Assembly: GCF_054482595.1 (NCBI RefSeq)
Contig: NZ_JBTHVH010000001.1
Length of the DNA stretch: 64,000 nt
Direction: 5' to 3' (one strand)
DNA from: a plasmid
In this document: one piece after another, positions 2,255 to 64,000 of the stretch
How the letters are laid out: each line of letters starts with the position of its first letter
Position numbering within the stretch: the stretch's first letter is position 1
The notes under the pieces: model-generated
Told to the model about the DNA's origin: nothing
Database searches by the model: none
The model's input: the letters and a program-made list of their open reading frames with translations, nothing else
Program-made: the position numbers and the translations under genes

Positions 2255-2476
2255 ATGGTTAATGCCAATCCTTGCGCACGCCAAGAATTCATCTGGCGTT
2301 TCTATTCCTGCAAAAAACACCACTATCACTTCGTCATCGCAGCAACAGAAGACGAAGCACGCTCTCAATTGCCTGATGGCCCCTGCATTTTTACTGCCCG
2401 TTTTTCAACTAACTCGCGCAATTCACTTAGTTACTGGAACCTCCCCTTCTCTTCCGACGTTCAGGGGGTTTTATGA
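2255..2476 (+). CDS. icd: Icd (cell-division inhibitor, leader ORF of ant)
   Basis: 73 aa. RBS GAGG is immediately preceded by the c4 target ATTGTG. ATGA overlap with ant. Confidence 0.85.
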   Translation: MVNANPCARQEFIWRFYSCKKHHYHFVIAATEDEARSQLPDGPCIFTARFSTNSRNSLSYWNLPFSSDVQGVL

Positions 2477-4509: not shown

Positions 4510-5355
4510 ATGCTGGCTAAAGTCACTTTCCTGAGCTGTATAACGATGAGCGATTTTACTTTTTCTGGCTATGAATTGGCCTGCTTTGTAACACACTCCG
4601 GTCTATCCCGTAGCGCCGGGCATATCCTGTCGCAATGTGCAAATCTAGCGGCAACAACCAGTGAATACTTCATTCACAAGCCTCACCGCCTGATCGCGGC
4701 AGAAACTGGTTATAGCCAATCAACCGTCGTTCGTGCATTCCGTGAAGCTGTAAACAAAGGAATTCTGTCTGTAGAGATTGTTATCGGCGATCACCGTGAA
4801 CGTCGCGCTAACCTGTACCGGTTTACACCATCCTTTTTGGCCTTCGCACAACAAGCCAAAAATGCGCTGATTGAAAGCAAATTAAAGATCTCTTCAGCGG
4901 CAACCAAGGTTAAAGCTGTTCTCGCTAAGACATTGGCTTTATTTAATTTTTTATCCACACCCCCATGTCAAAATGATACCCCCTCCCCCTGTCAGGATGA
5001 CGTGGCAATAAAGAATAAGAAGTCACAAGTTAAAAAAACAAAAAGATCAGTTTCCGGCGGTGCCGGAACGACCAGACTCAAAAAATTGACTTCATGGATC
5101 GCTGAGGCAAAAGCAAAGGCTGACAATCTGCGGTTATCCAAAAAACGCGCTCAAAAACATGAGTTCAAGCAGAAAGTAGAGGCGGCAGCGCGGAAATATG
5201 CTTACCTGAAGAACAAGCGTTCTCCTGATATTGACGGGGTATCAAACTTCGATAATTTGCCGCATTGCATGACGGTAAACGAAGCTCTTAATGCGGTTTT
5301 AGCCAAAAATAAAGATAACGAACAATGGGGTATACCGGCAGGATTCAGAGGGTAA
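4510..5355 (+). CDS. repL: RepL lytic replication initiator (oriL lies inside the gene in P1)
   Basis: 281 aa, same length and sequence as I recall for P1 RepL. Confidence 0.85.
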   Translation: MLAKVTFLSCITMSDFTFSGYELACFVTHSGLSRSAGHILSQCANLAATTSEYFIHKPHRLIAAETGYSQSTVVRAFREAVNKGILSVEIVIGDHRERRANLYRFTPSFLAFAQQAKNALIESKLKISSAATKVKAVLAKTLALFNFLSTPPCQNDTPSPCQDDVAIKNKKSQVKKTKRSVSGGAGTTRLKKLTSWIAEAKAKADNLRLSKKRAQKHEFKQKVEAAARKYAYLKNKRSPDIDGVSNFDNLPHCMTVNEALNAVLAKNKDNEQWGIPAGFRG

Positions 5356-9202: not shown

Positions 9203-10792
9203 TTACTTAATAAGCAGCGGTACGCCCTGGATACGACGGGCTACGCCAGTCGGGCAGCAGGCCCAGACTACTTCCCATTTATCGAATTCCGCCTGCGTAA
9301 CTTTCAGCACATACGGTTCTGTACCGTCAGCATCAGGATCACGAGGAGCCACCAGAGCGCCGGAGGCGACAAAGCGATCCAAAAGTTTGGTCATCCCTTT
9401 AGTCAGACCAGCGGCAGTAATACCGTCAGGGCTATGCTTCATCTGGCGGGCTAACTGGACAAAGAAACGGCTGATTGCATTCATCAGGGATGGGACGTGC
9501 TGGAAGTGCAGATAGTTATCCTGCGTGCAGCAAGTTAAAGCATCGTCGATGATCATCTGGCCAGAGGTGCCAACAGATACTTTATTGAGGCGGCCCTTAA
9601 CCATTGCTTCTTCGTCCGGGGTATCTTCCGGATACAGCGGTTGAATTGACGCACGAGCAATGACGGCACGTTCTTCACCAGCCGGTGAGTAATGCCAACC
9701 GCCGACATCAGAGTTTTTCTTGACGCCACGAGCTTTCGCCGCATACGCCGCGCCAGACAGACCGAAGACCACACGGGATTGGGTCCATTTGTCTTTGCAG
9801 GAGAACGGGAAGTGATAGACAGAACAGCTTACATAATCGGTACCAAGTAAACCGGTGCCCTCAACAGCTGTTAGTGCTTCTGCGTACCTTAATGTCGGTT
9901 TGACATCAAAGAAGCCATCAATCAGGCGATCAGAACAGATATTACCTAACGCAGTGATCGCCGCATTGTCATAGCACCCCAGGCCGAGAACAGCGGTGTA
10001 CATGTACGGCGCATTGTTCAGCACTTTCACCGCACGCAGGTACGCAGCGGTTGAGATTTTCGACTGATCGCCGTTGGTACCGCCAGTGAACGCCAACGAT
10101 TTTTTGTTTGTTACTTTCGCTGTCGAAATCAGCTCTTCATTAACAACCGCGCGCAGATATTTAGAACGGGCTTCCAGAGCCGTAGGCAGATAACACAAGC
10201 GGCCCATGTCATCTTTCGCTTCTTCCGCCAAAGACACAGTGTGTGTCTCCAGGGTCGTTACCACGCCGAGCGAAGTCGTCTGGGTCAGTTTTAAGAGGAA
10301 GCGTTCATTACCCGCGCTGTCCGCTGTTGCCGTTTCGATGGTTAACTCACGGGTAGGTGAAATACACGGATCACCATCATCAACGTAGATAGCAAAGGCT
10401 TCGCCACTATCAAGTTCAATTTCAGAACCGTATGGCAACGCACTGTAAGCCGGTTCGCCTGATTCATCGAACATAATAATCGGGAACTTCGCATCATCCG
10501 GAACAGCGCGAACAACATAACCAGACGTTTGCTGAATAGCTTCGTATACATGGCGAATTGGTTCGAACTGTGAGCCGGAAGACGGCTTCAGCGGTTCGCC
10601 GAGAACATCTTCGTAATTGGACTCAGTAACCGCAAGAACAGTAAACGGCTTGCCACGCGCAAATACGCCAATACCAGCCCACAAGCTGCTATTTAATGCA
10701 ACACCGGTAGATAACGTCGCATCGGCATTGATCGGGCTAACAGCGACGCCGGATGCATTACCTAATGACTGTTGAATTGAATATTGAGACAT
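9203..10792 (-). CDS. 22: contractile tail sheath protein
   Basis: 529 aa. P1 synteny, downstream of the capsid gene. Confidence 0.8.
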   Translation of the reverse strand: MSQYSIQQSLGNASGVAVSPINADATLSTGVALNSSLWAGIGVFARGKPFTVLAVTESNYEDVLGEPLKPSSGSQFEPIRHVYEAIQQTSGYVVRAVPDDAKFPIIMFDESGEPAYSALPYGSEIELDSGEAFAIYVDDGDPCISPTRELTIETATADSAGNERFLLKLTQTTSLGVVTTLETHTVSLAEEAKDDMGRLCYLPTALEARSKYLRAVVNEELISTAKVTNKKSLAFTGGTNGDQSKISTAAYLRAVKVLNNAPYMYTAVLGLGCYDNAAITALGNICSDRLIDGFFDVKPTLRYAEALTAVEGTGLLGTDYVSCSVYHFPFSCKDKWTQSRVVFGLSGAAYAAKARGVKKNSDVGGWHYSPAGEERAVIARASIQPLYPEDTPDEEAMVKGRLNKVSVGTSGQMIIDDALTCCTQDNYLHFQHVPSLMNAISRFFVQLARQMKHSPDGITAAGLTKGMTKLLDRFVASGALVAPRDPDADGTEPYVLKVTQAEFDKWEVVWACCPTGVARRIQGVPLLIK

Positions 10793-10852
10793 AACTTTCC
10801 CTGTTATGCGCCCCGCACGGGGGCGCTATGTTAAACGGAGAACTTCCCCTGA

Positions 10853-12580
10853 TTACTCAGAGTCACCGGCATCAATCGTGTCGCCGCTTATGAAGTTAAG
10901 CCCGCCTTTTTTGGCCATTGTCAGCGTTACACGAGTGAAGTAATCAGCGCCGTTGCGTGGGTGCATATCATTGATAGCCGAACCCCACAGCGTGGTACGA
11001 TTGACCAGCGCCGGAGTGGTCGGATGCTGGAACGGGATGGCCGGGACAGCATCACCAGTCACGAAGCCTGCTTTACCCGGATTTTCATCACGGACGTAGC
11101 ACAGCACATCCATCGAGCTGAACTGAATGTTCTCTGTCGTTAAGTTCTTACAAATACCAGCAGGTACTTCGTACACTTTCACGTTACCGAACAGGGTACC
11201 GATGTAGTGAACATACGGAGTCTGGATATAGTCTTCGGCTGGCTGGAAGAAATCCTTCGGCAACTGTTTGAAGAAAGATGCTGCATCAGCACCAGCAAAC
11301 ATCCCCATCGCACCAGAAGATTTAACGCGCTCAATAATGTCGCGATATACAGTCTGGAATTTGCCACGAATGATGGTTGCCCATACATCAAAGGACTGGT
11401 TAACCGGCAGAGCGATGTCAAAGGTGTCGGTCGCAAGAGTGCGCCAGATCATGATGCGAAGACGCAGCATATCCTGTTCATGAGACAGGTATTCCTTCAG
11501 GGTGCGGAACTGTAGGGAACCCAGGTCCAGACCAAATTCACGCTGTGCTTCATACGCCGCCTGTACCGTGTGCTCAGCCGCGATAACGAACTGACTTGGG
11601 AACAGGGTGTATTTCTTCATTTCGTGGTTGATCAGCGGGATCAGCTCAGGAGCGGCTTCAATATTGATTTCCGTCTCAATTGCGATCTCAGTGCCTTTAT
11701 CCGGCGCTTTGGAGAACGACAGGGCAATCTGACCAATGTTGTAGTTCAGAGAGCAGGTAACAGTGATTTGCTCACCAGCAGCATTAGTAAACGAGTGAAG
11801 TAGGCTGCCGGAACCGTTATCAACAACAGACTTAATACGGTTAACGTAGATGTTAGTGCGACCTTTTCGGATTGGTACATTCCGGCCTTCGAAGTCTTCC
11901 ATCTTGAAGGTTGCGGTTTTGCTGGTGCCATCGGAGCTTGCCACCAGCACATAGCGGCGGCGTAACTGGCTGTACACACCGACGGATTGCATGTCCAGAA
12001 CATCACCAGCAGCATAAGAACCAAAAGAGGAACCTGCCACGTTAAAGACTTCATAGATGTCGGACTGGTCACGCGTAACCGGAATGAAGGTACACGCATC
12101 AGCGGTAGCTGCCCCCAACTGAACAGGCAGGATCATCGCGAGGAATAAAGGCAGACGCATAACACCGTCAGAAACGCTCATCATCTCTGCTGCGACGGAT
12201 TCCAGCATCGCTTTATTAGTGGCATCCATGCTGTTGCGGGTGGACTCAATCAGGCAGTTTTCCAGCGTCTGGTGGCAGGAGGCCAGAATTTCCGGACGCG
12301 GCATAGATTTATGTGCTGCGGCGTAGTCAGCCAGTGCACTTGCCCACGCTGTAGCGATTTGAGCGGTGGCATTATCAGAGATACCCGCAAAAATTGGGTC
12401 TTTACGTGCAGCTTCAAGGATAGATGCGGCACGCGCGGCATCATCTTTAATGAATTGGTTATCAGTACCGAACTGCGCAGTGCTTGCCCAGCCAAGCACA
12501 GCTTTAGAGCGTTTTGCGATATCTGCAATACGATTCTGGTATTCGCGTAAGTTACTCAATTTACTCTTCCTTAAACACAA
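10853..12580 (-). CDS. 23: major head protein
   Basis: Large late ORF. The likely real start is TTG at 12559, 7 nt after AGGAAG (568 aa). Confidence 0.8.
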   Translation of the reverse strand: MCLRKSKLSNLREYQNRIADIAKRSKAVLGWASTAQFGTDNQFIKDDAARAASILEAARKDPIFAGISDNATAQIATAWASALADYAAAHKSMPRPEILASCHQTLENCLIESTRNSMDATNKAMLESVAAEMMSVSDGVMRLPLFLAMILPVQLGAATADACTFIPVTRDQSDIYEVFNVAGSSFGSYAAGDVLDMQSVGVYSQLRRRYVLVASSDGTSKTATFKMEDFEGRNVPIRKGRTNIYVNRIKSVVDNGSGSLLHSFTNAAGEQITVTCSLNYNIGQIALSFSKAPDKGTEIAIETEINIEAAPELIPLINHEMKKYTLFPSQFVIAAEHTVQAAYEAQREFGLDLGSLQFRTLKEYLSHEQDMLRLRIMIWRTLATDTFDIALPVNQSFDVWATIIRGKFQTVYRDIIERVKSSGAMGMFAGADAASFFKQLPKDFFQPAEDYIQTPYVHYIGTLFGNVKVYEVPAGICKNLTTENIQFSSMDVLCYVRDENPGKAGFVTGDAVPAIPFQHPTTPALVNRTTLWGSAINDMHPRNGADYFTRVTLTMAKKGGLNFISGDTIDAGDSE

Positions 12581-23858: not shown

Positions 23859-23934
23859 GATGGTGTAGCTCAGCGGTTAGAGCGGTTGACTGTTAATCAA
23901 CGGGTCGATGGTTCAAATCCATCCACCATCGCCA
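23859..23934 (+). tRNA. trnA: tRNA-Asn (GTT)
   Basis: Manual cloverleaf: acceptor GATGGTG/CACCATC, anticodon loop CTGTTAA, T-loop GGTTCAAATCC, encoded CCA. Confidence 0.9.
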
Positions 23935-23936
23935 AT

Positions 23937-24012
23937 GCCGGTTTAGCTCAGTTGGTAGAGCGCCTGCCTTGTAAGCAGGATGTCAGCGGTTCGAGTCCGT
24001 TAATCGGCACCA
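23937..24012 (+). tRNA. trnT: tRNA-Thr (TGT)
   Basis: Acceptor GCCGGTT/AATCGGC (one G-T), anticodon loop CTTGTAA, T-loop GGTTCGAGTCC, encoded CCA. Confidence 0.9.
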
Positions 24013-25816: not shown

Positions 25817-25892
25817 GGCCCTTTAGCTCAGTGGTTAGAGCTGGCGACTCATAATCGCACGGTCACCGGTTCAAGTCCGGTAGGGGCCACCA
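25817..25892 (+). tRNA. tRNA with CAT anticodon (Met or lysidine-type Ile; the P1 counterpart is annotated trnI)
   Basis: Acceptor GGCCCTT/AGGGGCC, anticodon loop CTCATAA, T-loop GGTTCAAGTCC, CCA. Confidence 0.85.
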
Positions 25893-52217: not shown

Positions 52218-52234
52218 TTTGCTCTAATAAATTG
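52218..52234 (+). promoter_or_regulatory. C1 operator in front of immI-like module 2
   Basis: TTTGCTCTAATAAATTG, 15/17, 4 nt after the pacB stop. Confidence 0.75.
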
Positions 52235-52417
52235 TGTTTTTTAACTACCGATGTTACATTGAACCTGACCTCTTGCGCCTTGAGGCATTTTCGGTTTATG
52301 CTTATCAGGCACCTCAGTAAAACGGGTGCCGGGATTGGCCTCCCGCTTAAGTCTAAGGCGATACAGACGCCGCTCGCGTCTTTTTTTTGTATCGGCGTAC
52401 ACGCACACCTCTACAAT

Positions 52418-52493
52418 GGTGGGCTGTATGGGGCTACCTTCGGGTAGGCTGGTTACCTTGGACGCCAGTAAGGCCAACTCCGTACAGTCCACC
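52418..52493 (+). ncRNA. c4-like antisense RNA, module 2 (76 nt, different recognition boxes)
   Basis: Same architecture as c4 (GGTGG...CCACC ends, CTTCGG hairpin). a' CCTTGGAC (52456) pairs with GTCTAAGG at 52351 and 52535. b' AGGCCAA (52471) pairs with TTGGCCT (52335) and TTGGTCT (52504). Confidence 0.65.
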
Positions 52494-52553
52494 GCCAGCA
52501 AGATTGGTCTCTTCTGCGGTGGTTACATACCAACGTCTAAGGAGGCTGCCAAT

Positions 52554-52775
52554 ATGGCTACTATCCCTACCCCAACTCATCCTGAATTTATCTGGCGCTT
52601 TTACTCCTGCCAAAAACGTCACTATCACTTCGTTATTGCACCGACAGAAGATGAGGCACGTTCTCAGCTTCCTGACGCCCCATGTATTTTCTCTGCCCGT
52701 TTTTCCACTGATTCACGCAATTCTCTCAGTTACTGGTGCCTCCCTGTTAACGCTTCTGCTCAGGAGGGACTATGA
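52554..52775 (+). CDS. Icd-like leader protein, module 2
   Basis: ATG 52554, 9 nt after AAGGAGG, which overlaps the a2 target. 73 aa, homologous to Icd from residue ~10. Confidence 0.75.
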   Translation: MATIPTPTHPEFIWRFYSCQKRHYHFVIAPTEDEARSQLPDAPCIFSARFSTDSRNSLSYWCLPVNASAQEGL

Positions 52776-53890
52776 GAACATCGTTAGTTACCCGTGAAGA
52801 GATGATCGAGGCAATTGAACAGCACACTGCCTGTATCAGTACCAGGGATATACCAGGCGTTATTGCCAACTACTTCATGATCACCAAACAACTTTACCGG
52901 AGAAAGGACAAGAACGCGGTTCACCGTATCCTGTTGTCTGATATCCGCGAATACCTGCTCGAACAGGGTCATCTGAATTACGCAACCGTCGCAGCCGAAT
53001 CACGCAAGGAGGCACACAGAATGAAAGCAACTAACGTTAAATCAGAAAAAATTCATGCACCTTCAGTTCAGGAATCGGAGCTGGTGGTTGTTCAGAATCA
53101 GTCTGATGAAATTCCCGTTCTGGAATGGCAGGGAGTGCGTGTAGTGACAACCGAGACTCTTGCTAGAGGGTATGGGACAGAAACAATCCGTATTCGCCAA
53201 AATCATCATGAGAACAAAGTACGCTTTGTTGAAGGGAAGCACTTTTTCAAAGTTGAAGGAGAATCATTGCGCGAGTTGAAGCACAGAGTAGCTTTAAACT
53301 ACTCTGTAAAAATTGCTCGCAATGTTCGCTCACTCACCCTCTGGACAGAACGCGGCGCAGCCCGCCACGCTAAAATGCTCGAAACCGATCAGGCATGGGC
53401 ATTCTTTGAAAAACTGGAAGACAGCTACTTCCGACAAAAAGAACAGCAACCGATCGCAATCCCCCAAACATTACCAGAAGCCCTACGCCTGGCTGCCGAA
53501 CTGGCTGAACAAAAGCAGCTTCTGGAACAGAAAGCCCACCAGCTAAATCAGCAGCTGGTGGCCGCCGCTCCTAAGGTCGATTTTGCCGACCGGGTATCAG
53601 TAGCTAAAGGGATCCTGATTGGGAATTTTGCAAAGGTTGTTGGACTTAAGCAAAACGCGCTGTTTGTCTGGTTACGGGAGAACGGCATCCTGATAGCGTC
53701 CGGTGGACGTAAAAATGTGCCGTTCCAGCAGTACATCAACGCGGGGTATTTCACGGTGAAAGAAGTGGTGCTGGATGATGAAGATGGCTACCAGATACGG
53801 TTGACGCCTCAATTAACGGGTAAAGGCCAGCAGTGGTTGACGCGTAAACTGCTCGATGCTGGCTTGTTAAAACCGGTGGCGGCTGAATAA
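52772..53890 (+). CDS. antirepressor Ant-like, module 2 (ORF6N/KilA-N-type central domain)
   Basis: 372 aa. N-terminal 85 aa and C-terminal KilAC region match module 3. The centre differs (VLEWQGVRVVTTETLARGYG...). Confidence 0.8.
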   Translation: MRTSLVTREEMIEAIEQHTACISTRDIPGVIANYFMITKQLYRRKDKNAVHRILLSDIREYLLEQGHLNYATVAAESRKEAHRMKATNVKSEKIHAPSVQESELVVVQNQSDEIPVLEWQGVRVVTTETLARGYGTETIRIRQNHHENKVRFVEGKHFFKVEGESLRELKHRVALNYSVKIARNVRSLTLWTERGAARHAKMLETDQAWAFFEKLEDSYFRQKEQQPIAIPQTLPEALRLAAELAEQKQLLEQKAHQLNQQLVAAAPKVDFADRVSVAKGILIGNFAKVVGLKQNALFVWLRENGILIASGGRKNVPFQQYINAGYFTVKEVVLDDEDGYQIRLTPQLTGKGQQWLTRKLLDAGLLKPVAAE

Positions 53891-53897
53891 TGGAAGA

Positions 53898-53926
53898 ATG
53901 CCCGGTTGATGCCGGGCATAATTTAT
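53898..53926. terminator. hairpin between convergent ant-like and c1 genes
   Basis: ATGCCCGG-TTGATG-CCGGGCAT. Confidence 0.6.
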
Positions 53927-54774
53927 TGCGCGCTTTCGGGGTTGTCGTTTACTGGCTGCCCCTTCTTGGTTTTACGGCTGCGCGTAACTGATGCGGCTGA
54001 CTTAACCTTTTTCTCTTCGCGAGTGATGGCAATTTGTTTTTTTACATTTTCAATATCTGCCAGGCGATATATTTTTGCTTGCGGCCAGCGGTCGCAGATG
54101 ATCGGTTCTATGGAGTCATAAAGGCTAAATTTTGCTTTTTCGAATTCACCGTTGATGATAATTCCATCACGGAGAGTTTCATCGCAGATAAACACGCCAC
54201 ACAGTGGCACATGGTAACTAACTGATTTACCATCATTGTAGTTAGGGCTACTGGAAATGTAGTGGACGCGCAGCATTGTTTCGCTAAAGCCGTGTACGCG
54301 CATACGGAATTTTTCATCCTCCGGGTACTGCCTCATTAGCTCTTTTGTTGCTTCCAGGTTCTCTATGTATTTCGCACTGTGCTCATTGATCCCCGCGCTT
54401 TTTTGGATGCGAATGTCCTTATCAATCAGATGAATAATGCGGCCAGCGGTCATGTTGACGCTGTTCACAGCTTCTGTCTGATAAGTTGTAACCTTGCGCA
54501 CACCGCGAAGGATGTTAGGCACTGGATATAAAATAGTCTTTGGGATATTGAGGTCTGGGTACTGTTCCAGTTCCCGCGCCATTAAAGTCCATTTATCAAT
54601 TTCAGCCTGAATGCTGTCTGTTTCTTTGAACGGTAGAACGACAACCGGGCGTACAGGACGACCGTCGCTGGCGGCATCAACGTGTTGGGCGCGTGCAACA
54701 GCTTTTTTTAGAAAGAGATCCCTGAAGCTGACGAACTCCTGGTACAGTTGTTCGCCGTAGACATAATTTATCAT
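53923..54774 (-). CDS. c1: C1 master repressor
   Basis: 283 aa. MINYVYGEQLYQEFVSFRDLFLKK... as I recall for P1 C1. Confidence 0.9.
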   Translation of the reverse strand: MINYVYGEQLYQEFVSFRDLFLKKAVARAQHVDAASDGRPVRPVVVLPFKETDSIQAEIDKWTLMARELEQYPDLNIPKTILYPVPNILRGVRKVTTYQTEAVNSVNMTAGRIIHLIDKDIRIQKSAGINEHSAKYIENLEATKELMRQYPEDEKFRMRVHGFSETMLRVHYISSSPNYNDGKSVSYHVPLCGVFICDETLRDGIIINGEFEKAKFSLYDSIEPIICDRWPQAKIYRLADIENVKKQIAITREEKKVKSAASVTRSRKTKKGQPVNDNPESAQ

Positions 54775-54868
54775 TGATCCTCCTCCAGAATTGACATGGT
54801 CAATAACGCCCGGCTGAGAAAACCGGTCATTACTGACCTATATTATAGAGGGATCAAACAAAAATAAT

Positions 54869-54885
54869 AGATTTATTAGTGCATT
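54869..54885 (-). promoter_or_regulatory. C1 operator (Op99a-like) upstream of c1
   Basis: Reverse strand AATGCACTAATAAATCT, 14/17. Confidence 0.65.
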
Positions 54886-55094
54886 TATTGTGAGTCTAAC
54901 TGGTTAGTTGTCATGAGATATTCGATTGTGTCAGTGAGGTCATCCAGGTCGTCTTGGGTGATGCGGTACTCCTGATTGGATATCTTTGAGTAGTGTTCAG
55001 CAATGGCGCGGGCAGCGTCGGTTTCGGCAGGGTCTACAGATAAAGCGTTAGAGCAATGTCTAACGTCGTCGATGGTTGGTTGAATGAAAGCCAT
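54885..55094 (-). CDS. coi: C1 inactivator
   Basis: 69 aa. P1 synteny. Confidence 0.8.
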   Translation of the reverse strand: MAFIQPTIDDVRHCSNALSVDPAETDAARAIAEHYSKISNQEYRITQDDLDDLTDTIEYLMTTNQLDSQ

Positions 55095-55331
55095 AATTAT
55101 GCCTCACTGTATTGACAACACAGAGCCCGAAGCTCTGACCTACTGTTTCACCCATGATCCATGCTGGGGTAATCTAACAACATTGCGCTGTGTGTAAGAT
55201 GAGCAATGCATAGCTGTAATGCCGTTGTATAAGGTTTCCCTGTTTGCTCATTTCCTTCTGAGCCGCTCTACAACGCTGAAGACACATTAAATAGTGAATC
55301 CAAAGTCGTATTACGTAACGGCGGCAAAACT

Positions 55332-55348
55332 ATAATTTATTAGAGCAA
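55332..55348 (-). promoter_or_regulatory. C1 operator (Op99 cluster)
   Basis: Reverse strand ATTGCTCTAATAAATTA, 16/17. Confidence 0.8.
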
Positions 55349-55415
55349 TTGTCAAACAACTATGAAAAACAATCCAGTTTTTAGCTGGTGGAGTGGGATT
55401 TTTCTCTCAAAATTT

Positions 55416-55432
55416 ATTGCTCTAATAATTCT
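55416..55432 (+). promoter_or_regulatory. C1 operator (Op99 cluster)
   Basis: ATTGCTCTAATAATTCT, 15/17. Confidence 0.7.
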
Positions 55433-55475
55433 TGATTTTTATGCGCAGCTGGACGTAAACTCCTCTTCGGATCTA

Positions 55476-55509
55476 ATAACTTCGTATAGCATACATTATA
55501 CGAAGTTAT
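55476..55509 (+). other. loxP: loxP recombination site
   Basis: Exact ATAACTTCGTATA-GCATACAT-TATACGAAGTTAT. Confidence 0.98.
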
Positions 55510-55698
55510 ATTAAGGGTTATTGAATATGATCAATTTACCTGTAAATCCATACAGTTCAATACTGTAGCAGGTCAAATAGTGACCACTTGATCATTTGAT
55601 CAAGGTTGCGCTACGTAAAATCTGTGAAAAATTGGCGGTGTTAGTCCTACAGATTTCGCGTAGCGCACTTAGCACCACCAATCAATCAGAGGTGAAAA

Positions 55699-55920
55699 AT
55701 GGGATATTCAACTGCTAAAGTGTCCACTCATCTTGAGCTTGAGAAAAACCGTGGTTACTGGCGGGCAAAAGGGTTTGATCGTGATAGTTGCCAACTGTCA
55801 TTATCGCGCGGTGAAGAGAAAATAGAACGCACGCGCGGTCGCTGGCGTTTCTATGACGAGAACCATAAACAGGTAAAGGCAGAGCCGATCCTGTACACTT
55901 TACTTAAAACCATTATCTGA
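55699..55920 (+). CDS. cra: small protein upstream of cre
   Basis: 73-aa ORF. P1 synteny. Confidence 0.7.
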   Translation: MGYSTAKVSTHLELEKNRGYWRAKGFDRDSCQLSLSRGEEKIERTRGRWRFYDENHKQVKAEPILYTLLKTII

Positions 55921-55927
55921 GTGTTAA

Positions 55928-56959
55928 ATGTCCAATTTACTGACCGTACACCAAAATTTGCCTGCATTACCGGTCGATGCAACGAGTGATGAGGTTCGCA
56001 AGAACCTGATGGACATGTTCAGGGATCGCCAGGCGTTTTCTGAGCATACCTGGAAAATGCTTCTGTCCGTTTGCCGGTCGTGGGCGGCATGGTGCAAGTT
56101 GAATAACCGGAAATGGTTTCCCGCAGAACCTGAAGATGTTCGCGATTATCTTCTATATCTTCAGGCGCGCGGTCTGGCAGTAAAAACTATCCAGCAACAT
56201 TTGGGCCAGCTAAACATGCTTCATCGTCGGTCCGGGCTGCCACGACCAAGTGACAGCAATGCTGTTTCACTGGTTATGCGGCGGATCCGAAAAGAAAACG
56301 TTGATGCCGGTGAACGTGCAAAACAGGCTCTAGCGTTCGAACGCACTGATTTCGACCAGGTTCGTTCACTCATGGAAAATAGCGATCGCTGCCAGGATAT
56401 ACGTAATCTGGCATTTCTGGGGATTGCTTATAACACCCTGTTACGTATAGCCGAAATTGCCAGGATCAGGGTTAAAGATATCTCACGTACTGACGGTGGG
56501 AGAATGTTAATCCATATTGGCAGAACGAAAACGCTGGTTAGCACCGCAGGTGTAGAGAAGGCACTTAGCCTGGGGGTAACTAAACTAGTCGAGCGATGGA
56601 TTTCTGTCTCTGGTGTGGCTGATGATCCGAATAACTACTTGTTTTGCCGTGTCAGAAAAAATGGCGTAGCTGCGCCATCTGCCACCAGCCAGCTATCAAC
56701 TCGCGCCCTGGAAGGGATTTTTGAAGCAACTCATCGATTGATTTACGGCGCTAAGGATGACTCTGGTCAGAGATACCTGGCCTGGTCTGGACACAGTGCC
56801 CGTGTCGGAGCCGCGCGAGATATGGCCCGCGCCGGAGTTTCAATACCGGAGATCATGCAAGCTGGTGGCTGGACCAACGTAAATATTGTCATGAACTATA
56901 TCCGTAACCTGGATAGTGAAACAGGGGCAATGGTGCGCCTGCTGGAAGATGGCGATTAG
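55928..56959 (+). CDS. cre: Cre tyrosine recombinase
   Basis: 343 aa. MSNLLTVHQNLPALPVDATSDEVRKNLMDMFRDRQAFSEHTWKMLLSVCRSWAAWCKLNN... Confidence 0.98.
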   Translation: MSNLLTVHQNLPALPVDATSDEVRKNLMDMFRDRQAFSEHTWKMLLSVCRSWAAWCKLNNRKWFPAEPEDVRDYLLYLQARGLAVKTIQQHLGQLNMLHRRSGLPRPSDSNAVSLVMRRIRKENVDAGERAKQALAFERTDFDQVRSLMENSDRCQDIRNLAFLGIAYNTLLRIAEIARIRVKDISRTDGGRMLIHIGRTKTLVSTAGVEKALSLGVTKLVERWISVSGVADDPNNYLFCRVRKNGVAAPSATSQLSTRALEGIFEATHRLIYGAKDDSGQRYLAWSGHSARVGAARDMARAGVSIPEIMQAGGWTNVNIVMNYIRNLDSETGAMVRLLEDGD

Positions 56960-56976
56960 CCATTAACGCGTAAATG

Positions 56977-56993
56977 ATTGCTCTAATTCTTTG
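56977..56993 (+). promoter_or_regulatory. weak C1 operator-like site (Op2 position)
   Basis: ATTGCTCTAATTCTTTG, 13/17. Confidence 0.45.
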
Positions 56994-57009
56994 ATATTTA
57001 TGGCGACAT

Positions 57010-57321
57010 ATGAGAAAGAATTTCAACATCGACGGAAAATATGTAGTGCTGTCAGTGAGCACTAATATTCAGTCGCCAGCCGTCATTGTCACTGTAAAGC
57101 TGAGCGATAGAATGCCTGATATTGACTCAATATCCGTTGCGTTCCCTGTCAGAAGTATGCGTAGTGCTGAACATTTCGTGATGAATGCCACCGAGGAAGA
57201 AGCACGGCGCGGTTTTGCTAAAGTGATGTCTGAGTTTGGCGAATTTTTGGGGCACGTTGACAAAGCCCTCTCAATCAGTTCAGCAAGATCCAAAGCATTA
57301 ACAGCTTCCATGATGAAATAA
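57010..57321 (+). CDS. hypothetical protein downstream of cre (c8 position)
   Basis: 103-aa ORF. Identity with P1 c8 not verified. Confidence 0.5.
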   Translation: MRKNFNIDGKYVVLSVSTNIQSPAVIVTVKLSDRMPDIDSISVAFPVRSMRSAEHFVMNATEEEARRGFAKVMSEFGEFLGHVDKALSISSARSKALTASMMK

Positions 57322-57326
57322 AAAAA

Positions 57327-57345
57327 GCCTGGCAAGGAGCCAGGC
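57327..57345 (-). terminator. minus-strand terminator (end of the module-3 transcript)
   Basis: GCCTGGC-AAGGA-GCCAGGC, with T7 on the minus strand. Confidence 0.65.
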
Positions 57346-57523
57346 TGCACAAAAGAGCGGGTTTGTATTCCGCATCCAATCAATCAAGAAGGAGTATAGC
57401 ACACAGGTACTGACGTGAAAAAATATGATTCGCGATAAACAAAATACCTATCATTGCTCTAATTGAGCCGCAGTTTTTGTCAACTACGAAGACGTGGCCA
57501 TTACCTACTCCTTTGAAATCATT

Positions 57524-57547
57524 GGCGACCATTAGGCCGCCTTTTTT
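57524..57547 (+). terminator. plus-strand terminator
   Basis: GGCGACC-ATTA-GGCCGCC (one mismatch) plus T6. Confidence 0.5.
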
Positions 57548-57549
57548 AA

Positions 57550-58602
57550 TCATTCAGCCGCCACCGGTTTTAACAAGCCAGCATCAAGTAGCTTGCGAGT
57601 CAACCACTGCTGGCCTTTACCCGTTAATTGGGGCGTCAGCCGTATCTGGTAGCCATTTTCATCATCCAGCACCACTTCTTTCACCGTGAAATACCCGGCG
57701 TTGATGTACTGTTGGCGCGGTACGTTTTTGCGCGCACCAAAAGCCATGAGAATGCCGTTCTGGCGCAACCATGAGAAAAGGGCGTTTTGCTTCAGTCCAA
57801 CGACCTTTGCAAAGTTCCCGATCAGGATTCCATTAGCCACTGATACCCGAACGGCAAAATCGACTTTAGGGGCTGCGGCCACCAGCTGCTGATTTAGCTG
57901 GTGGGCTTTCTGTTCCAGAAGTTGCTTTTGTTCAGCCAGCTCGGCAGCCAGGCGCAGAGCTTCGGGGAGTGTTTGGGGGAGCACTGGAGAAGCAGTGTTA
58001 GCCTGCTGCAATTCCTCCAGTTTGTCGATCAGCGAACGGCGGACCGCTTTTGACTCGCGCGCGGCAACTCGCAGGGCTTGTTTGTAGGTCATGGAGATAG
58101 TTTCAGATGTTGTGTTGTTTAATTTTTGCACTACGAAAATTTCGTAGTACTCACCATCCAGTTCATCCTTAACTCTGGCAATAAAATCATTATTGCGAAC
58201 TGGTTTTTCGCTGCATAATTTCCGCGCTTCATTGACCATCTTCAACAATGTTTGGCTGTCTATTGTGTCGCCGCTGTTGGGGATAACATTCACGGCTGGT
58301 GCAGTTGTTCCCAAAGACTTCGTAACTACAGCGTCTGGTTTGCTTGCTTTCATTCTGTGTGCCTCCTTGCGTGTTTCGGCTGCGACGGTTGCGTAATTCA
58401 GATGCCCCTGTTCGAGCAGGTATTCACGGATATCGGTTAGCAGAATGCGGTGAACCGCGTGTTTGTCCTTTCTCCGGTAAAGTTGTTTGGTGATCATGAA
58501 GTAGTTGGCAATAACGCCTGGTATATCCCTGGTACTGATACAGGCAGTGTGCTGTTCAATTGCCTCGATCATCTCTTCACGGGTGACTAATGACGTTCTC
58601 AT
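57550..58602 (-). CDS. antirepressor Ant-like, module 3
   Basis: 350 aa. Centre and C-terminus resemble module 1; the N-terminus resembles module 2. Confidence 0.8.
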   Translation of the reverse strand: MRTSLVTREEMIEAIEQHTACISTRDIPGVIANYFMITKQLYRRKDKHAVHRILLTDIREYLLEQGHLNYATVAAETRKEAHRMKASKPDAVVTKSLGTTAPAVNVIPNSGDTIDSQTLLKMVNEARKLCSEKPVRNNDFIARVKDELDGEYYEIFVVQKLNNTTSETISMTYKQALRVAARESKAVRRSLIDKLEELQQANTASPVLPQTLPEALRLAAELAEQKQLLEQKAHQLNQQLVAAAPKVDFAVRVSVANGILIGNFAKVVGLKQNALFSWLRQNGILMAFGARKNVPRQQYINAGYFTVKEVVLDDENGYQIRLTPQLTGKGQQWLTRKLLDAGLLKPVAAE

Positions 58603-58820
58603 AGTCCCTCCTGAGCAGAAGCGTTAACAGGGAGGCACCAGTAACTGAGAGAATTGCGCAAATCGGTAGAAAAGCGGGCAGAGAAAATACAGGGAGCATC
58701 CGGAAGCTGAGAACGTGCCTCATCTTCTGTTGGTGCGATAACGAAGTGATAGTGACGTTTCTGGCAGGAGTAAAAGCGCCAGATAAATTCAGGGCGTGCG
58801 CAAGGATTGGCATTAACCAT
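58599..58820 (-). CDS. Icd-like leader protein, module 3
   Basis: 73 aa. MVNANPCARPEFIWRFYSC... Confidence 0.8.
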   Translation of the reverse strand: MVNANPCARPEFIWRFYSCQKRHYHFVIAPTEDEARSQLPDAPCIFSARFSTDLRNSLSYWCLPVNASAQEGL

Positions 58821-58870
58821 AGTTACGGCCTCATGTACAGGTTTAACAACCTGCTATCCGCTGCTAAACG

Positions 58871-58947: not shown

Positions 58948-59121
58948 ATAATTCGGGCGTAACGTGGTTTTACGGACACAAAAATACCGCAATATCGGAT
59001 ATCTGCGGTTGTCCGCATGTACATTCAGGCTGCTAAACCCGGTCGCAGAATTTGCTACGACGGCGGAACTATAAGCCTGAATGACAGGAAGATCAATAGT
59101 CTGGCGTTCAATGGTAGTATT

Positions 59122-59154
59122 TTTGCTCCAATAAATCAAATCTATTAGAGCAAT
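59122..59154 (-). promoter_or_regulatory. bipartite C1 operator between module 3 and the MBL-fold gene
   Basis: Reverse strand ATTGCTCTAATAGATTT (16/17) at 59138-59154, plus weak TTTGCTCCAATAAATCA at 59122-59138. Confidence 0.7.
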
Positions 59155-59296: not shown

Positions 59297-60097
59297 ATGT
59301 CCGTGACCATTAGCGTCCTGCTGGAAAACAGACTTAAGCTTGGAGTTAAAAACTCGCTGCGTGCTAAAGCAGGACTTAGTCTGTTGATACAGGATGAAAA
59401 CGATTCAATCCTGTTTGATACTGGGCCTGATGATAGCTTCATGTATAACGCAGGTTTAATGGGGGTCGATTTGACAAAACTGACCGCAGTTGTACTTTCC
59501 CATGGTCACTATGACCACTGCGGAGGTGTTCCGTGGATACCAGACACATGCAGGATAATATGCCATCCTATGGTGTCGGATGAGCGCTATTCGGCAATCA
59601 GGTTTTTAGGCTATACCGCCAGAATAAAAAAATTATCATTACATAATGATTTTTCACGTTTCCGCATGGAATACAGCAACACACCATTGCATATCAGTGA
59701 GCGTTTTATGTGGTCAGGAGAGATCCCTGTTGCCAGGCCACGCGCTTACGGTGTTATCGGGTGTAAGAATACGAAAGAAGATTACGTAAAAGATGAGGGG
59801 GTTTTAATTTATAAATCAGACTATGGGTTGATCATTTTTATCGGTTGTGGTCATTGCGGGGTAATTGATATTGTGCGCCACTGCCAAAATATAACCGGGA
59901 TAAATCATATTCATGCAATTTTTGGTGGTCTTCATCTGCGCTGTGCGTCCCCTCTTATGCTCTGGAAGGTGAGACAGTTCTTACGCCTTCATAAACCAGA
60001 TAAGATAATGGGGTGTCATTGTACTGGCAAATGGGGACGCTTGTGGTTACCGGAATCAACCTCTCCGGCAACAGGTGATGTTTATGTTCTTGGATAG
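59297..60097 (+). CDS. metallo-beta-lactamase-fold hydrolase
   Basis: HGHYDHCGG (HxHxDH) motif, with downstream His/Cys/Asp ligand candidates. 266 aa. Confidence 0.75.
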   Translation: MSVTISVLLENRLKLGVKNSLRAKAGLSLLIQDENDSILFDTGPDDSFMYNAGLMGVDLTKLTAVVLSHGHYDHCGGVPWIPDTCRIICHPMVSDERYSAIRFLGYTARIKKLSLHNDFSRFRMEYSNTPLHISERFMWSGEIPVARPRAYGVIGCKNTKEDYVKDEGVLIYKSDYGLIIFIGCGHCGVIDIVRHCQNITGINHIHAIFGGLHLRCASPLMLWKVRQFLRLHKPDKIMGCHCTGKWGRLWLPESTSPATGDVYVLG

Positions 60098-60282: not shown

Positions 60283-60414
60283 TCACACGCCCGGTACGGA
60301 TGGATCCCTTTTCAAATATTCCATGGACGGCACAGTCTGAGTACCGGGCGCTACCTTCAGTTGTATGTATTGCTAAGCCGCCGCTGGTGGCTTTTCTTTT
60401 TTGTAGGGGGCGCT

Positions 60415-61056
60415 ATGGATAAGAAAATATGCGTTGTTTCGATGAGCGTCGGCAAACCGGCGTCAATGACTGCTGCATGGATCAATAACGAGCTGATAAT
60501 GGCTGAGCGGACCAGCTACCCTGAACGCCGCCGCGATATGGAACTCCAGCTGCTGCGCGAATTGCGAGAAAAAGAGGAAAAGGGGTTTATCGTGCTGGTG
60601 GAAGAGGAAAACAGCTTTATTACTGGTCGAGTTGGCCAGCGTGTAAGGTTGCGCGATCCCTTCATGAACGGCAGGCCGGTACTAATTGAGGCAATGCAGA
60701 TTTATAAGGAGTTGGAACGCCAGAAAGCAATCAAGTTACCGCGCAAGGAATCCGGCAAATACATCCTCCACCAAAGCATCTTCGATTCCGAACACGATAA
60801 AAAAGGCGATGAATTTTTCAACATCAACTGGAGCGAAATAACGACAGAGCATGTTCTGACGTTACTATGTTGCTTTGCGACGGAATACAACAACGTTGCC
60901 AGCGCCGACTACATCAGGGCAATGGCTGGAGAAGTTGAGGCACGCCAGGAACCATCGTTACTAAGCCCTCTGATTAACATAATTCGCAGAACCCAAACAC
61001 TGGCGCAAAAACAAGTACCACAAGGGGAATTGACGGGTAAAGGTAATTATCTCTGA
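60415..61056 (+). CDS. mat: hypothetical protein, possibly the particle maturation function
   Basis: ATG 60415 after AGGGGG. 213 aa. Symbol inferred only from position and promoter architecture. Confidence 0.45.
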   Translation: MDKKICVVSMSVGKPASMTAAWINNELIMAERTSYPERRRDMELQLLRELREKEEKGFIVLVEEENSFITGRVGQRVRLRDPFMNGRPVLIEAMQIYKELERQKAIKLPRKESGKYILHQSIFDSEHDKKGDEFFNINWSEITTEHVLTLLCCFATEYNNVASADYIRAMAGEVEARQEPSLLSPLINIIRRTQTLAQKQVPQGELTGKGNYL

Positions 61057-61095: not shown

Positions 61096-61344
61096 TTAAT
61101 CAGCATTCAGGAGCAATGCGTTATCTATGATGATCTGCTCCCATTCTTCGAATGCCCGATCGCGGACGCCCTGGGGAACACTGTTAGTTTTGAAATCGAC
61201 GACCGTACGCCATTTCCCGTCCGGACGGTACATGCGCAGAGCTTTACTTCCCCCTTCCCTGCGCACCTCAACGTTATGCTTGTCAGCAAACTCTTGTAAT
61301 GCTCGTAACGTCCCATGCTTTACTGTGTAGTATCGCTTTTTCAA
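61096..61344 (-). CDS. lxc: 82-aa protein, probable Lxc (Bof) C1 co-repressor
   Basis: Length and position (upstream of ulx/darB) match P1. Sequence not verified. Confidence 0.55.
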   Translation of the reverse strand: MKKRYYTVKHGTLRALQEFADKHNVEVRREGGSKALRMYRPDGKWRTVVDFKTNSVPQGVRDRAFEEWEQIIIDNALLLNAD

Positions 61345-61781
61345 GTTTTCTCTCCAGCCTGTGCCAAGGCTTCAACTTCCAAATCATAAGACTCAAACTC
61401 ATAGTCCTGGTCGTCAACTTCTTCAGGCACTGGCAGTAAATGCCAGGCTGAGTATATCTGACCATTATCAAAACGCTCCTGGCTGTAGAGCGTAGCGGCT
61501 ATGAGTGTTAGCGCCGGGCGGTCATAACGGTAAATTTTGCGAACGTCACGGTCAACGAGACGACCGAAATTACCATAACCGCGCTCCAGTAATAATTTTT
61601 TAATTTCCGGCCAGTATGGACCATAGCTGCGGTACAGGCGGGGATTTTTCAGTAATCGCCCGCGTAGCCCTGACAGGAAGAAATCAACGTATTCGTCTTC
61701 TGTCTTTCCTAACAACGCCGTACGCAGTACCGCCTCAAGATATGTTTTATTCGGTTTTATTGTATCAGATAGTGTGGCCAT
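61341..61781 (-). CDS. ulx: protein upstream of lxc
   Basis: 146-aa ORF, ATGA-type overlap with lxc. Confidence 0.55.
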   Translation of the reverse strand: MATLSDTIKPNKTYLEAVLRTALLGKTEDEYVDFFLSGLRGRLLKNPRLYRSYGPYWPEIKKLLLERGYGNFGRLVDRDVRKIYRYDRPALTLIAATLYSQERFDNGQIYSAWHLLPVPEEVDDQDYEFESYDLEVEALAQAGEKT

Positions 61782-61814: not shown

Positions 61815-64000
61815 TTATGCGTATTGTTGGATGACGGCCAGAACGTCCGCCACGTTGTGTTTTGTCTCGATAATCCACCAGTTACCCGGGAAATCGCTGT
61901 TCTTTGCCTTCGCTGGCAGCCAGCGAGCGCCGAATTTCGCCTTGATTGCGTCTTTCGCACGGAAAAGAATGCCTTTCATGCCGGACGCCTCCTGAAGCCC
62001 AAATACCTCGCCAGCGGCGAATTTTGGTGCGTACATCATCTTCAGGTCGGCGGTGGATACGCGATAATTCAGACCAAGAGACTGAGCTATGCTGGTGGCA
62101 TCACCCTGTATTGATGATAACTCTTCTTGTTTCTCGTTTCTGGCGGCAATTTCTTCCTCCGTGATGTTGCCAAGGGCCAGGTTTATCCGATCAGCGTCGG
62201 CCTGTTTCTCTTCATCGGTGCGCCCGGCAAGAACCGTGTTAATTCTCTGCAATATCTCCACATGATTCTTGCGCATGCTGAGCAATTCCGGCGTAACCTC
62301 GTTAAGATCCACCAGCCCAAGGATGGCAAGGTCGGAAAACATTGATACCAGGTTGTAGGTCATGCGATAGCTGAGTTGGCCATAGGCTGATGGCAACTGC
62401 ACCGCATCCATTTTATAGGCATCCATAAATTTAGAGCCGTCGTTTACGACATCCGCAATTGCCGGTGTGATTTTCCCTGTGGTGGCGGCCTCCCTGATTG
62501 CTGTTACCCACGATTGAGTCAGTGCGGCGACTGCATGATTCAGATTGGCTTCCCGTTCTGCTGCGATGCGCGCGCTTGCTGCGTCCATTGCCTGCTTGAT
62601 CTCGGCTTTATTGCTGTAAATGCCAATGGTGCCAAACTGTGCTGTGGTGATCTCATAATCTGACGCCCGGAACTCATGGGTACCGAAAATGGCATTGGTG
62701 ACCTCAAGTTCAGAATCCCCGTTACGAGTAGCCCCCTGGCTTGTTTTCTCCGGCATTCTGGCGATCGCATCCGCTATTTTCTCCTGAATTGCTTCAGGGG
62801 ATAGCGTATCTCCATATGACGCGATTACATCGCCATAATTGGAGCCAAACAGTTCAGTCAGGAATACTTCTGCCAAACGGACCTGGCGGTTATTCCCTTC
62901 AGACATCATACCAAGCACCCATTTTGCAATTGACGACTTCAGCGCGCCGTCACGGCGATCCGGGTAAACCGCATGCTTCAGTGGGTCCGTATAGGTACCA
63001 ACAAAATCAATGCTATAGCCTGACTCTGTAGTCTGAACGCCGTATGAGTCAGTGATTTTGATCATGCCGCGCTGCTGGAAACGGTAGAAATCGTCACAGG
63101 AAATGATGTCGTTAATCCCGGCGATGGAGACGCCACCACTGATTTTCTGCATAACAGCATCTTCATCGGGAGTTACATCCACCTGTTTATCCAGCGTCTT
63201 CACATCCCAGTTACCCGATTTGGTGCCTCTTAAGGTAAAGATGATCTCCACGTCTGCGCGCTGGCTGTCGAAGTCCAGCGACTTAATGCGAACGATATCA
63301 CCGGCACAATCGTAGTATTGGCCTACACGCCATGAGCGATCGCCGATAACAAGGAACTCATTCGCATGGTTAACCAGATCAGGATCAACATCCAGAATGC
63401 CTTTATTTATTGCATCCTCCACCAGCGGGCGCAGGCGTTTGATATCCGTCGCGGCCTTCTGAGTACGGTTCAATAATTTCTCATAGCGGGAGATGGCCTG
63501 AGAGATATTAGCCTTGCGCTGAATGGCGCTTTTCAACGACGCGCGATACTGTGCTAACAACATACGGTCTGTGTGATGGACACTCCCCCAGCGGGCCTTC
63601 CAGTCTGCGTTATCCGCTGCCTTGGCCATTGCCGCCTGTTTGAATTTAGCTACCTCGGCGGTGGTCTTTTCAAGTTCCGCTTTGCTTCGCTCTAATTCAG
63701 CGGTAAGTACCTCCACATCCTCGCCAGCTGCGTGCTGCGCCTTGATGTAGTTCTGAAGGTCGATAGTAGCCTGTTCTTTCTGGCGAGCGCGTTTCGCAGC
63801 TTTCGCCTTATCCATTTGAACCTGCATCATTGCCAGACGTTCGCCGTCATCCTTCGCGGTATACATCTGCATTTCGATCATGTCATTGGCGTCGGCGTTC
63901 TCCATTTCTGACTTATCTGAACGGAGGATATCGGAGATCCAGCCTGCTTTACGCTTCAGCGTCTTCAGTCGGTATTCATCGAAAGACCCCTTGCCGCAGT
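61815..64000 (-). CDS. 3' part of a very large ORF (DarB-like position); open to the right edge
   Basis: The track starts it at M 63905, but the frame has no stop up to 64000 (...CGKGSFDEYRLKTLKRKAGWISDILRSDKSEMEN...). Confidence 0.6.
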   Translation of the reverse strand, partial: CGKGSFDEYRLKTLKRKAGWISDILRSDKSEMENADANDMIEMQMYTAKDDGERLAMMQVQMDKAKAAKRARQKEQATIDLQNYIKAQHAAGEDVEVLTAELERSKAELEKTTAEVAKFKQAAMAKAADNADWKARWGSVHHTDRMLLAQYRASLKSAIQRKANISQAISRYEKLLNRTQKAATDIKRLRPLVEDAINKGILDVDPDLVNHANEFLVIGDRSWRVGQYYDCAGDIVRIKSLDFDSQRADVEIIFTLRGTKSGNWDVKTLDKQVDVTPDEDAVMQKISGGVSIAGINDIISCDDFYRFQQRGMIKITDSYGVQTTESGYSIDFVGTYTDPLKHAVYPDRRDGALKSSIAKWVLGMMSEGNNRQVRLAEVFLTELFGSNYGDVIASYGDTLSPEAIQEKIADAIARMPEKTSQGATRNGDSELEVTNAIFGTHEFRASDYEITTAQFGTIGIYSNKAEIKQAMDAASARIAAEREANLNHAVAALTQSWVTAIREAATTGKITPAIADVVNDGSKFMDAYKMDAVQLPSAYGQLSYRMTYNLVSMFSDLAILGLVDLNEVTPELLSMRKNHVEILQRINTVLAGRTDEEKQADADRINLALGNITEEEIAARNEKQEELSSIQGDATSIAQSLGLNYRVSTADLKMMYAPKFAAGEVFGLQEASGMKGILFRAKDAIKAKFGARWLPAKAKNSDFPGNWWIIETKHNVADVLAVIQQYA

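Follow-up and report, generated by a model that had tools for sequence, protein, structure and literature searches.

The closest described counterpart of the locus considered here is immI of bacteriophages P1 and P7, an operon in which the parts run from a C1 operator, through a processed C4 RNA bearing the a' and b' loops, to the nested genes for Ant1 and Ant2, which end in a KilAC domain. In P1, Ant2 is produced from an internal AAGGAGG and Met84, and P1/P7 heteroimmunity is the textbook case of immunity specificity carried by an antisense RNA, treated as one locus with two alleles. That the two phages are heteroimmune is established (PMC6906374), and the C4 and c4-a1b1 motifs were described by Weinberg et al. 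2010 (PMC2864571). A second group of relatives comprises the isrK/C4 modules of lambdoid and P22-like prophages, in which isrK (RF01394) is directly followed by C4 (RF01695) ahead of an antirepressor-type gene; APSE phages have been described with this pairing (PMC7313666), and in Gifsy-1 an antirepressor-like gene is found downstream of IsrK (PMC4825925). The DNA analyzed here, referred to as the window, is a stretch of 64,000 nucleotides (nt) from a plasmid (NCBI RefSeq assembly GCF_054482595.1, contig NZ_JBTHVH010000001.1), and represents a P1-like phage-plasmid that is matched by hundreds of others from Escherichia, Salmonella, and Shigella. While P1 and P7 carry a single immI cassette per genome, the window holds three complete operons of the immI type, namely module 1 (1924-3516), module 2 (52218-53890), and module 3 (59154-57550), the last two bracketing the immC/lox-cre block. 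On this evidence, the window is judged to be a stacked, multi-specificity form of the known P1 immI system.

The layout of the modules, read from alignment with the annotated immI of P1 (NC_005856) and P7 (AF503408), is common to all three: a C1 operator, promoter hexamers, the a1/b1 targets, a hairpin with a T-run, C4, the a2 target, b2 with the ribosome-binding site (RBS), icd, and nested ant1/ant2. Three C4 genes were recovered in an Rfam scan of the whole window, all of them full-length model matches that exceed the gathering score of 45 bits (Table 1), and a leader match lies upstream of each, to c4-a1b1 (RF03163) in modules 1 and 3 and to isrK in module 2. A search for the C1-operator consensus returned 15 matches against 0.28 expected, including one per module at an equal position upstream of the leader; these module operators have one or two mismatches to the consensus and align with Oc4 of P1 and Op(c4) of P7. 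In each module, the targets at all four sites are complementary to the C4 loops, either exactly or with G-U pairs tolerated, and b2 is situated at the icd RBS. The icd gene encodes 73 amino acids (aa) throughout and its stop codon overlaps the start of ant (ATGA); Icd of module 2, the one tested, matched the Icd-like family NF033153. All three Ant proteins keep the internal AAGGAGG and Met84, the Ant2 start, and end in a KilAC domain. The cassettes possess all the defining features of the P1 immI operon that can be tested in sequence. The initial annotation had rightly recognized the repeated arms around c1 as parts of icd and ant, but the complete C1- and C4-controlled operons around these arms had gone unnoticed. 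In two relatives (L008 and L015), RefSeq places a 120-nt coding sequence (CDS) for an "ash family protein" over the C4 gene of module 2 (1237-1356, corresponding to ~52412-52530 in the window); here, an RNA gene has probably been mistaken for a protein-coding one.

Module 1 is the canonical immI, 94-97% identical to that of P1 and P7. Modules 2 and 3 differ from it in occupying new sites, between pacB and c1 and between c8 and mat, respectively, without kilA-repL downstream. Module 2 further departs from P1/P7 immI in its isrK-type leader, its C4 sequence, and its ORF6N Ant center; it shares the isrK-C4 succession with the prophage modules mentioned above, from which it is set apart by a P1 C1 operator and by feeding an icd-ant1/ant2 pair with P1-like ends. 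Module 3 carries a b' loop, CATGTAC, unlike those of P1 and P7. The N-terminus of its Ant is module-2-like, and the center and most of the C-terminal part are module-1-like (79-96% nt identity), such that modules 1 and 3 have one Ant center in common (79-85% nt identity) and module 2 has ORF6N in its place. The two modules are transcribed towards each other, onto the immC/lox-cre block, and the gene order of the region runs pacB, icd-ant (rightward), c1-coi (leftward), lox-cra-cre-c8 (rightward), ant-icd (leftward), an open reading frame (ORF) for an MBL-fold protein, and mat. The closest plasmid is pYZMc17-1_100k of E. coli (NZ_CP123256.1), with 99.6% identity over 8.5 kb of the region, and the order from pacB to mat with both modules is repeated in 12 more plasmids of E. 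coli, E. albertii, and E. fergusonii; the window's plasmid and 12 fetched relatives make up the 13-plasmid set used below.

The three modules differ in their sets of loops and targets, and each set is complementary to itself. Computed loop-target duplexes reach -20 to -22.5 kcal/mol for cognate combinations and -7 to -16 for non-cognate ones, a gap that is the same as for the experimentally heteroimmune P1/P7 pair. Given that distinct loops are matched by their own targets, each cassette is expected to be silenced by its own C4 only, with the P1/P7 pair as the yardstick. Among 12 related plasmids, at least five loop types are found at the module-3 site and at least three at the module-2 site, and a change in the C4 loop is always accompanied by changes in a1/b1 and a2/b2. 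A wider survey, in which IMG/VR and GTDB genomes were scanned with a pattern for the P1/P7 C4 scaffold with free loops, yielded 123 further C4 genes that fall into seven b' types and two a' types, with 12 of the combinations present; exact complements at b1, b2, a1, and a2 accompany at least 97% of these genes. Such precise covariation of loops and targets is what selection on RNA-RNA specificity predicts. Within-contig comparisons, drawn from seven multi-copy IMG/VR contigs, the window, and AP026456, comprise 16 pairs, none of which has identical specificity. Individual genomes illustrate the range: AP026456.1 has a fourth immI cassette (9899-11483, with operator, a1b1, C4, icd, and ant) adjoining its module 3, from which the a' element is the sole difference, and the 97-kb contig IMGVR_UViG_2703718869_000013 has four C4 genes on the P1/P7 scaffold, whose loop combinations are all different.

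The operons account for a pair of inverted repeats. A repeat finder delimits two ungapped arms, I1 (94% complementary) and I2 (87%), so that the high similarity and opposite orientation that had been judged by eye are confirmed, with the arm coordinates proposed earlier right to within a few bases and the segment put at ~3.7 kb measuring 3637 nt between the inner arms. As had also been stated, c1, coi, the operator cluster, loxP, cra, and cre all lie between the arms, and c8 does too. I1 covers icd from codon 10 to its end and Ant codons 1-86, up to the Ant2 start, and I2 covers the C-terminal 143 codons of Ant plus 11 nt; between them, the ant centers (53031-53459, 429 nt, versus 57981-58343, 363 nt) have no similarity. 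Perfect identity persists for up to 122 bp in I1, which has a second run of 64 bp, and for up to 47 bp in I2; the copies differ at 26 positions in I1 and 56 in I2. Repeats this long and this similar cannot arise by chance. The lower identity of I2 is explained by the 3' end of ant3, which in the window is 96% identical to module 1. A perfect palindrome with a 10-bp stem, CCACCAGCTGCTGATTTAGCTGGTGG, is present in both ant 3' arms (53536-53561 and 57879-57904), in or beside a seven-residue LLEQKAH that is found in Ant of modules 2 and 3 and is absent from module 1, P1, and P7.

The place at which the repeat begins is nearly constant. In 13 of 13 plasmids, modules 2 and 3 become homologous at module position 375-382, that is, 24-31 nt after the icd ATG and just past the C4 and target specificity elements, upstream of which the two modules belong to different leader types. 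Residues 1-9 of the module-3 Icd are identical to module 1 and the remainder is module-2-like, which marks a clean breakpoint at icd codon 9/10. The differences between the arms amount to 10 synonymous and one non-synonymous in icd codons 10-73, nine and three in Ant codons 1-86, and 36 and nine in the C-terminal 143 codons of Ant. Most are thus synonymous, and the coding parts, all intact, are subject to purifying selection. Over the 13 plasmids, I1 has 80 polymorphic columns, at none of which the module-2 and module-3 classes are fixed for different bases, and its mean identity is 0.958 within module 2, 0.959 within module 3, and 0.948 between them; I2 has one fixed difference and obvious mosaics. 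With virtually no fixed differences and with haplotype blocks common to both paralog classes, recurrent exchange is indicated, a pattern characteristic of paralogs that have repeatedly recombined or undergone gene conversion.

Exchange extends to the variable centers of Ant. Module 3 of the window is pieced together from segments that resemble either module 1 or module 2. Across the plasmids, the Ant encoded at the module-3 site is 350 to 465 aa long and varies in its central domain, and in NZ_CP027590, NZ_AP027182, and NZ_CP069714 the homology between modules 2 and 3 is unbroken over 1.3 kb at 92-94%. The reshuffling of Ant domains that the initial annotation envisaged has hence taken place over evolutionary time, as the zero and one fixed differences, the common haplotype blocks, and the variable centers attest. 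Within ant3, a central stretch (58003-58266, ~264 nt) has ~90% identity to the antirepressor genes found in many Stx2a-converting lambdoid phages; the 8.5-kb query matched 85 phage records, 48 of them Stx2a-converting. This similarity suggests that P1-like plasmids and lambdoid prophages have traded Ant central domains.

Taken together, the arms are best read as the conserved effector parts of two supernumerary immI-type antirepressor operons that flank immC/lox-cre, within a set of three C4-specific cassettes that draw on an exchanged payload, an interpretation to which a probability of about 0.7 is assigned. By analogy with P1/P7 immI, C1 would bind the operator of each module, each C4 would block translation of its own icd and, by coupling, of ant, and Ant1/Ant2 would inactivate C1. 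A prophage with several C4 types could then silence the antirepressors of several kinds of incoming relatives, and an incoming phage with several cassettes would escape unless the resident silences all of them. Diversifying selection would act on loops and targets, and icd/ant downstream of the boundary would form a common pool, exchanged among paralogs and co-circulating plasmids. On this view, the repeat would begin ~27 nt into icd because all the sequence before that point belongs to the specificity region, which diversifies, and the payload would stay similar and exchangeable because it must keep recognizing the same C1. The antagonism of Ant and C1, the repression of icd/ant by C4, and heteroimmunity set by the specificities carried are thus transferred to these modules from P1 and P7.

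It should be noted that several observations weigh against this interpretation or narrow it. The orthogonality of the three C4 RNAs is predicted from base-pairing only, and modules 1 and 3 have the same a'/a elements, their b'/b elements differing at 4 of 7 positions, so that partial cross-repression may occur. The lack of identical specificities in the 16 within-contig pairs compares with 2.0 identical pairs expected under random pairing (P = 0.12), which is not significant, and exclusivity of specificities within a genome is therefore suggestive only. In addition, the identity of the arms is the same within a plasmid (0.948) as between plasmids (0.948), and the exchange is consequently ascribed to the whole population rather than to the two arms of one molecule; intramolecular concerted evolution is not claimed for the same reason. 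Finally, an assembly shows only the orientation that predominates, and a minority subpopulation with the segment between the arms inverted could exist.

On such an inversion, the present interpretation parts from the initial annotation, which had proposed that recombination between the arms would invert the segment with c1 and lox-cre. Cast as a rival, the arms would be a substrate for homologous recombination that inverts 3.6-5.3 kb at a relevant frequency, giving two isomers in which C4 leaders are re-paired with Ant bodies. Mechanistically this is possible: within arms of 94% and 87% identity, the perfect runs of 122, 64, and 47 bp suffice for RecA-type recombination and lie above the minimal processing segment, some relatives have the 1.3-kb repeat noted above, an in-frame crossover would presumably keep all genes intact, and hybrids of leader and Ant body occur in nature. 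The inversion itself, however, finds no support. A synthetic inverted junction of 3947 nt, composed of the pacB 3' end, leader 2, I1, the ant3 body, and c8 and cre reversed, which detects crossovers in I1 or I2, was covered to at least 80% in 0 of 784 matching PLSDB plasmid records and 0 of 913 matching complete E. coli genomes, the best covers (73%) being the native right-hand side, whereas a native query of equal length was found in 269 of 816 PLSDB records and the native two-module block of 8.5 kb in 44 PLSDB records and 30 complete E. coli genomes. Wherever the flanks of an IMG/VR locus could be read, the module-3 site had mat upstream of it and c8/cre before c1 on the other side; in no case did c1 come before cre. 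The known invertible segments of this type of genome, the C segment of P1/Mu with Cin and the G segment with Gin, likewise consist of DNA bracketed by inverted repeats; they rely on a serine invertase acting at short cix/gix sites, and each is found in both orientations. The repeats of the window, by contrast, are coding paralogs of 450 and 442 nt, neither an invertase nor paired crossover sites of the Cin/Gin/Hin type are found in the region, where Cre is the sole recombinase and loxP is single, and one orientation is seen in all the collections searched. Inversion is accordingly feasible in principle and unobserved as a fixed or majority form in public assemblies; as a flip-switch the arms are rejected, and inversion at a relevant frequency is deemed unlikely.

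Two further alternatives concern whether the repeats are real and whether they matter. That they arose in assembly, through the mis-joining of an ant region that had been duplicated or collapsed, is effectively refuted for the window: the order of the window recurs at 93-99.6% identity in the 44 plasmid records and 30 complete genomes just mentioned, from different hosts, countries, and sequencing projects, and the two copies, with 26 and 56 mismatched positions, are attached to unlike leaders and central domains. As many independent complete assemblies reproduce its order, the window itself is no artefact, although the earlier warning about such errors was apt for two draft-derived IMG/VR contigs, L123 and L124, which switch partner exactly at the arms. 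In L123 (9038-12199), an intact module 1 is joined to c1, equal to a deletion of 3506-53459 of the window (~50 kb), with which the contig size of 45.5 kb agrees; in L124 (4967-8657), a module-3-type leader is joined via arm I1 to the ant2 body and then to c1. Both junctions are absent from ~820 complete plasmids; assemblers may be led astray by such repeats, or rare recombination may leave its trace there. The two contigs are either rare true recombinants or draft-assembly mis-joins, and they are not counted as evidence of inversion. The icd/ant repeats are thus places where draft assemblies or real recombinants switch partner, and structural claims about them need long reads. Alternatively, modules 2 and 3 may be redundant duplicates or remnants without distinct specificity, kept for gene dosage or decaying as immI copies from other prophages. 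The Ant central segments in common with lambdoid Stx phages, the occurrence of the isrK-C4 leader type in unrelated phages such as APSE, and the absence of both modules from P1 and P7 themselves fit this view; yet all ORFs are intact, the arm differences are mostly synonymous, the C1 operator, leader, C4, targets, RBS, and internal Ant2 start are all kept, and loops and targets covary precisely across hundreds of copies, which together make redundancy improbable.

Table 1. Features of the three immI-type modules, the inverted-repeat arms, and the segment between them (window coordinates)
Feature	Position	Strand	Remarks
Module 1 C1 operator	1924-1940	+	
Module 1 c4-a1b1 leader	2001-2053	+	a1 2039-2045, b1 2053-2059
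Module 1 C4 RNA	2122-2207	+	RF01695, 69.6 bits; b' CACAATC (b1/b2 GATTGTG), a' CTGCTAA (a1/a2 TTAGCAG); P7 type
Module 1 targets	a2 2208-2214, b2 2237-2243	+	
Module 1 icd	2255-2476	+	
Module 1 ant1/ant2	2473-3516	+	
kilA	3680-4480		downstream of module 1
repL	4510-5355		downstream of module 1
Module 2 C1 operator	52218-52234	+	TTTGCTCTAATAAATTG, 2 mismatches; relative position as P1 Oc4/Op51
Module 2 leader, isrK-type	52309-52386	+	RF01394, 60 bits; hairpin and T-run end 52365-52381
Module 2 leader targets	a1 52335-52341, b1 52351-52358	+	a1 TTGGCCT, b1 GTCTAAGG
Module 2 C4 antisense RNA gene	52412-52499	+	RF01695, 75.9 bits; distinct scaffold
Module 2 C4 loops	b' 52456-52463, a' 52471-52477	+	b' CCTTGGAC, a' AGGCCAA
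Module 2 targets	52504-52553	+	a2 TTGGTCT 52504-52510, b2 GTCTAAGG 52535-52542; b2 overlaps icd RBS
Module 2 icd	52554-52775	+	73 aa, NF033153 Icd-like
Module 2 ant	52772-53890	+	372 aa; Ant1-specific N-terminus, ORF6N 116-202, KilAC 260-361
Arm I1	52581-53030 vs 58344-58793	inverted	450 nt
Arm I2	53460-53901 vs 57539-57980	inverted	442 nt
Terminator-like hairpin	53898-53919	+	between ant(2) stop and c1 stop
c1 repressor gene	53923-54774	-	NF041318 equivalog, 611 bits
C1 operator cluster	54869-54885, 55333-55349, 55416-55432		three matches upstream of c1/coi
coi (C1 inactivator) ORF	54885-55094	-	
loxP	55476-55509	+	exact 34-bp match, sole copy in window
cra	55699-55920	+	
cre	55928-56959	+	
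c8	57010-57321	+	
Terminator-like hairpin and T-run	57346-57326	-	downstream of ant(3), facing c8
Module 3 ant	57550-58602	-	350 aa; KilAC 238-339; Ant2 start kept
Module 3 icd	58599-58820	-	73 aa
Module 3 targets	58832-58867	-	b2 GTACATG 58832-58838, a2 TTAGCAG 58861-58867
Module 3 C4 antisense RNA gene	58953-58868	-	RF01695, 71.7 bits; b' CATGTAC (b1/b2 GTACATG), a' CTGCTAA (a1/a2 TTAGCAG); new b', P7 a'
Module 3 c4-a1b1 leader	59016-59074	-	RF03163, 55.5 bits (59022-59074); b1 59016-59022, a1 59030-59036
Module 3 promoter-like TTGATC-17-TATAGT	59096-59068	-	counterpart of P1 P51b
Module 3 C1 operator	59138-59154	-	1 mismatch to consensus

Outside the modules, the region varies among relatives in ways that are listed here for completeness. 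Between the arms, NZ_CP027443.1 has an extra ORF of 131 aa between cra and cre (4738-5133), and AP026456.1 has a RelE-like toxin and a regulator at the usual position of cra (4545-5210). Between module 3 and mat, the window contains an ORF for an MBL-fold metallo-hydrolase (59297-60097, + strand; Lactamase_B, 57 bits) that was without a match in a PADLOC scan; it is shared with the closest plasmid and absent in the 11 other fetched relatives, in which mat comes directly after module 3 or after another ORF or cassette. The ORFs at 60361-61056, 61341-61781, and 61815-63905 had no match in the Pfam and PADLOC scans. In the closest plasmid, a SIR2-family gene follows mat at the place corresponding to 61815-63905 (- strand, 696 aa) and 61341-61781 (- strand, 146 aa), and the post-mat position is accordingly judged to be a slot for variable cargo or defense-type genes. 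The window also has three tRNA genes (23859-23931, 23937-24009, and 25817-25889, all on the + strand; Rfam tRNA, 65-75 bits), as expected in a P1-type genome.

Extra antirepressor genes in P1-like elements have been noticed before. Venturini et al. 2019 reported additional ant or icd-ant genes in RCS47, pTZ20_1P, and pSvP1 as inserted ORFs, with "two short orfs and an antirepressor between pacB and c1" and "homologs of P1 icd-ant1/2" near c8-mat (PMC6906374), which are exactly the two sites of modules 2 and 3. In the text consulted, no C4 genes, operators, distinct specificities, inverted-repeat relation, or recombination boundary is described. The searchable literature, including Wang 2022 and Pfeifer 2022, likewise contains no description of stacked cassettes, covarying specificities, the inverted-repeat relation, or the boundary, although they may be described elsewhere; an arms race run through an immunity "barcode", as outlined below, appears to be new to that literature.

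The broader proposal is that such cassettes compose a combinatorial RNA "immunity barcode", in which each genome carries two to five immI cassettes with C4 loops that always differ and with a payload interchangeable up to ~27 nt into icd, the specificities being drawn from a pool of at least seven b' types and two a' types on the P1/P7 scaffold, plus isrK-type variants. This generalization is offered tentatively, at somewhat under even odds. If it is true, the cassettes that a genome carries would determine which relatives it can exclude as a resident and which residents it can overcome as an incoming phage, and superinfection immunity would be the subject of an arms race run by a few RNA nucleotides. 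P1-like plasmids occur commonly in E. coli, E. albertii, and Salmonella, and resistance genes are often among their cargo; the present data indicate that natural ones stack several cassettes, in which a sharp boundary parts a diversifying "address" from a common "payload". As a flip-switch the arms are unsupported; as a multi-specificity immunity architecture they are of moderate interest, and if the cassettes work as proposed here, they would provide a predictor, readable from sequence, of coexistence, exclusion, or induction among phage-plasmids.

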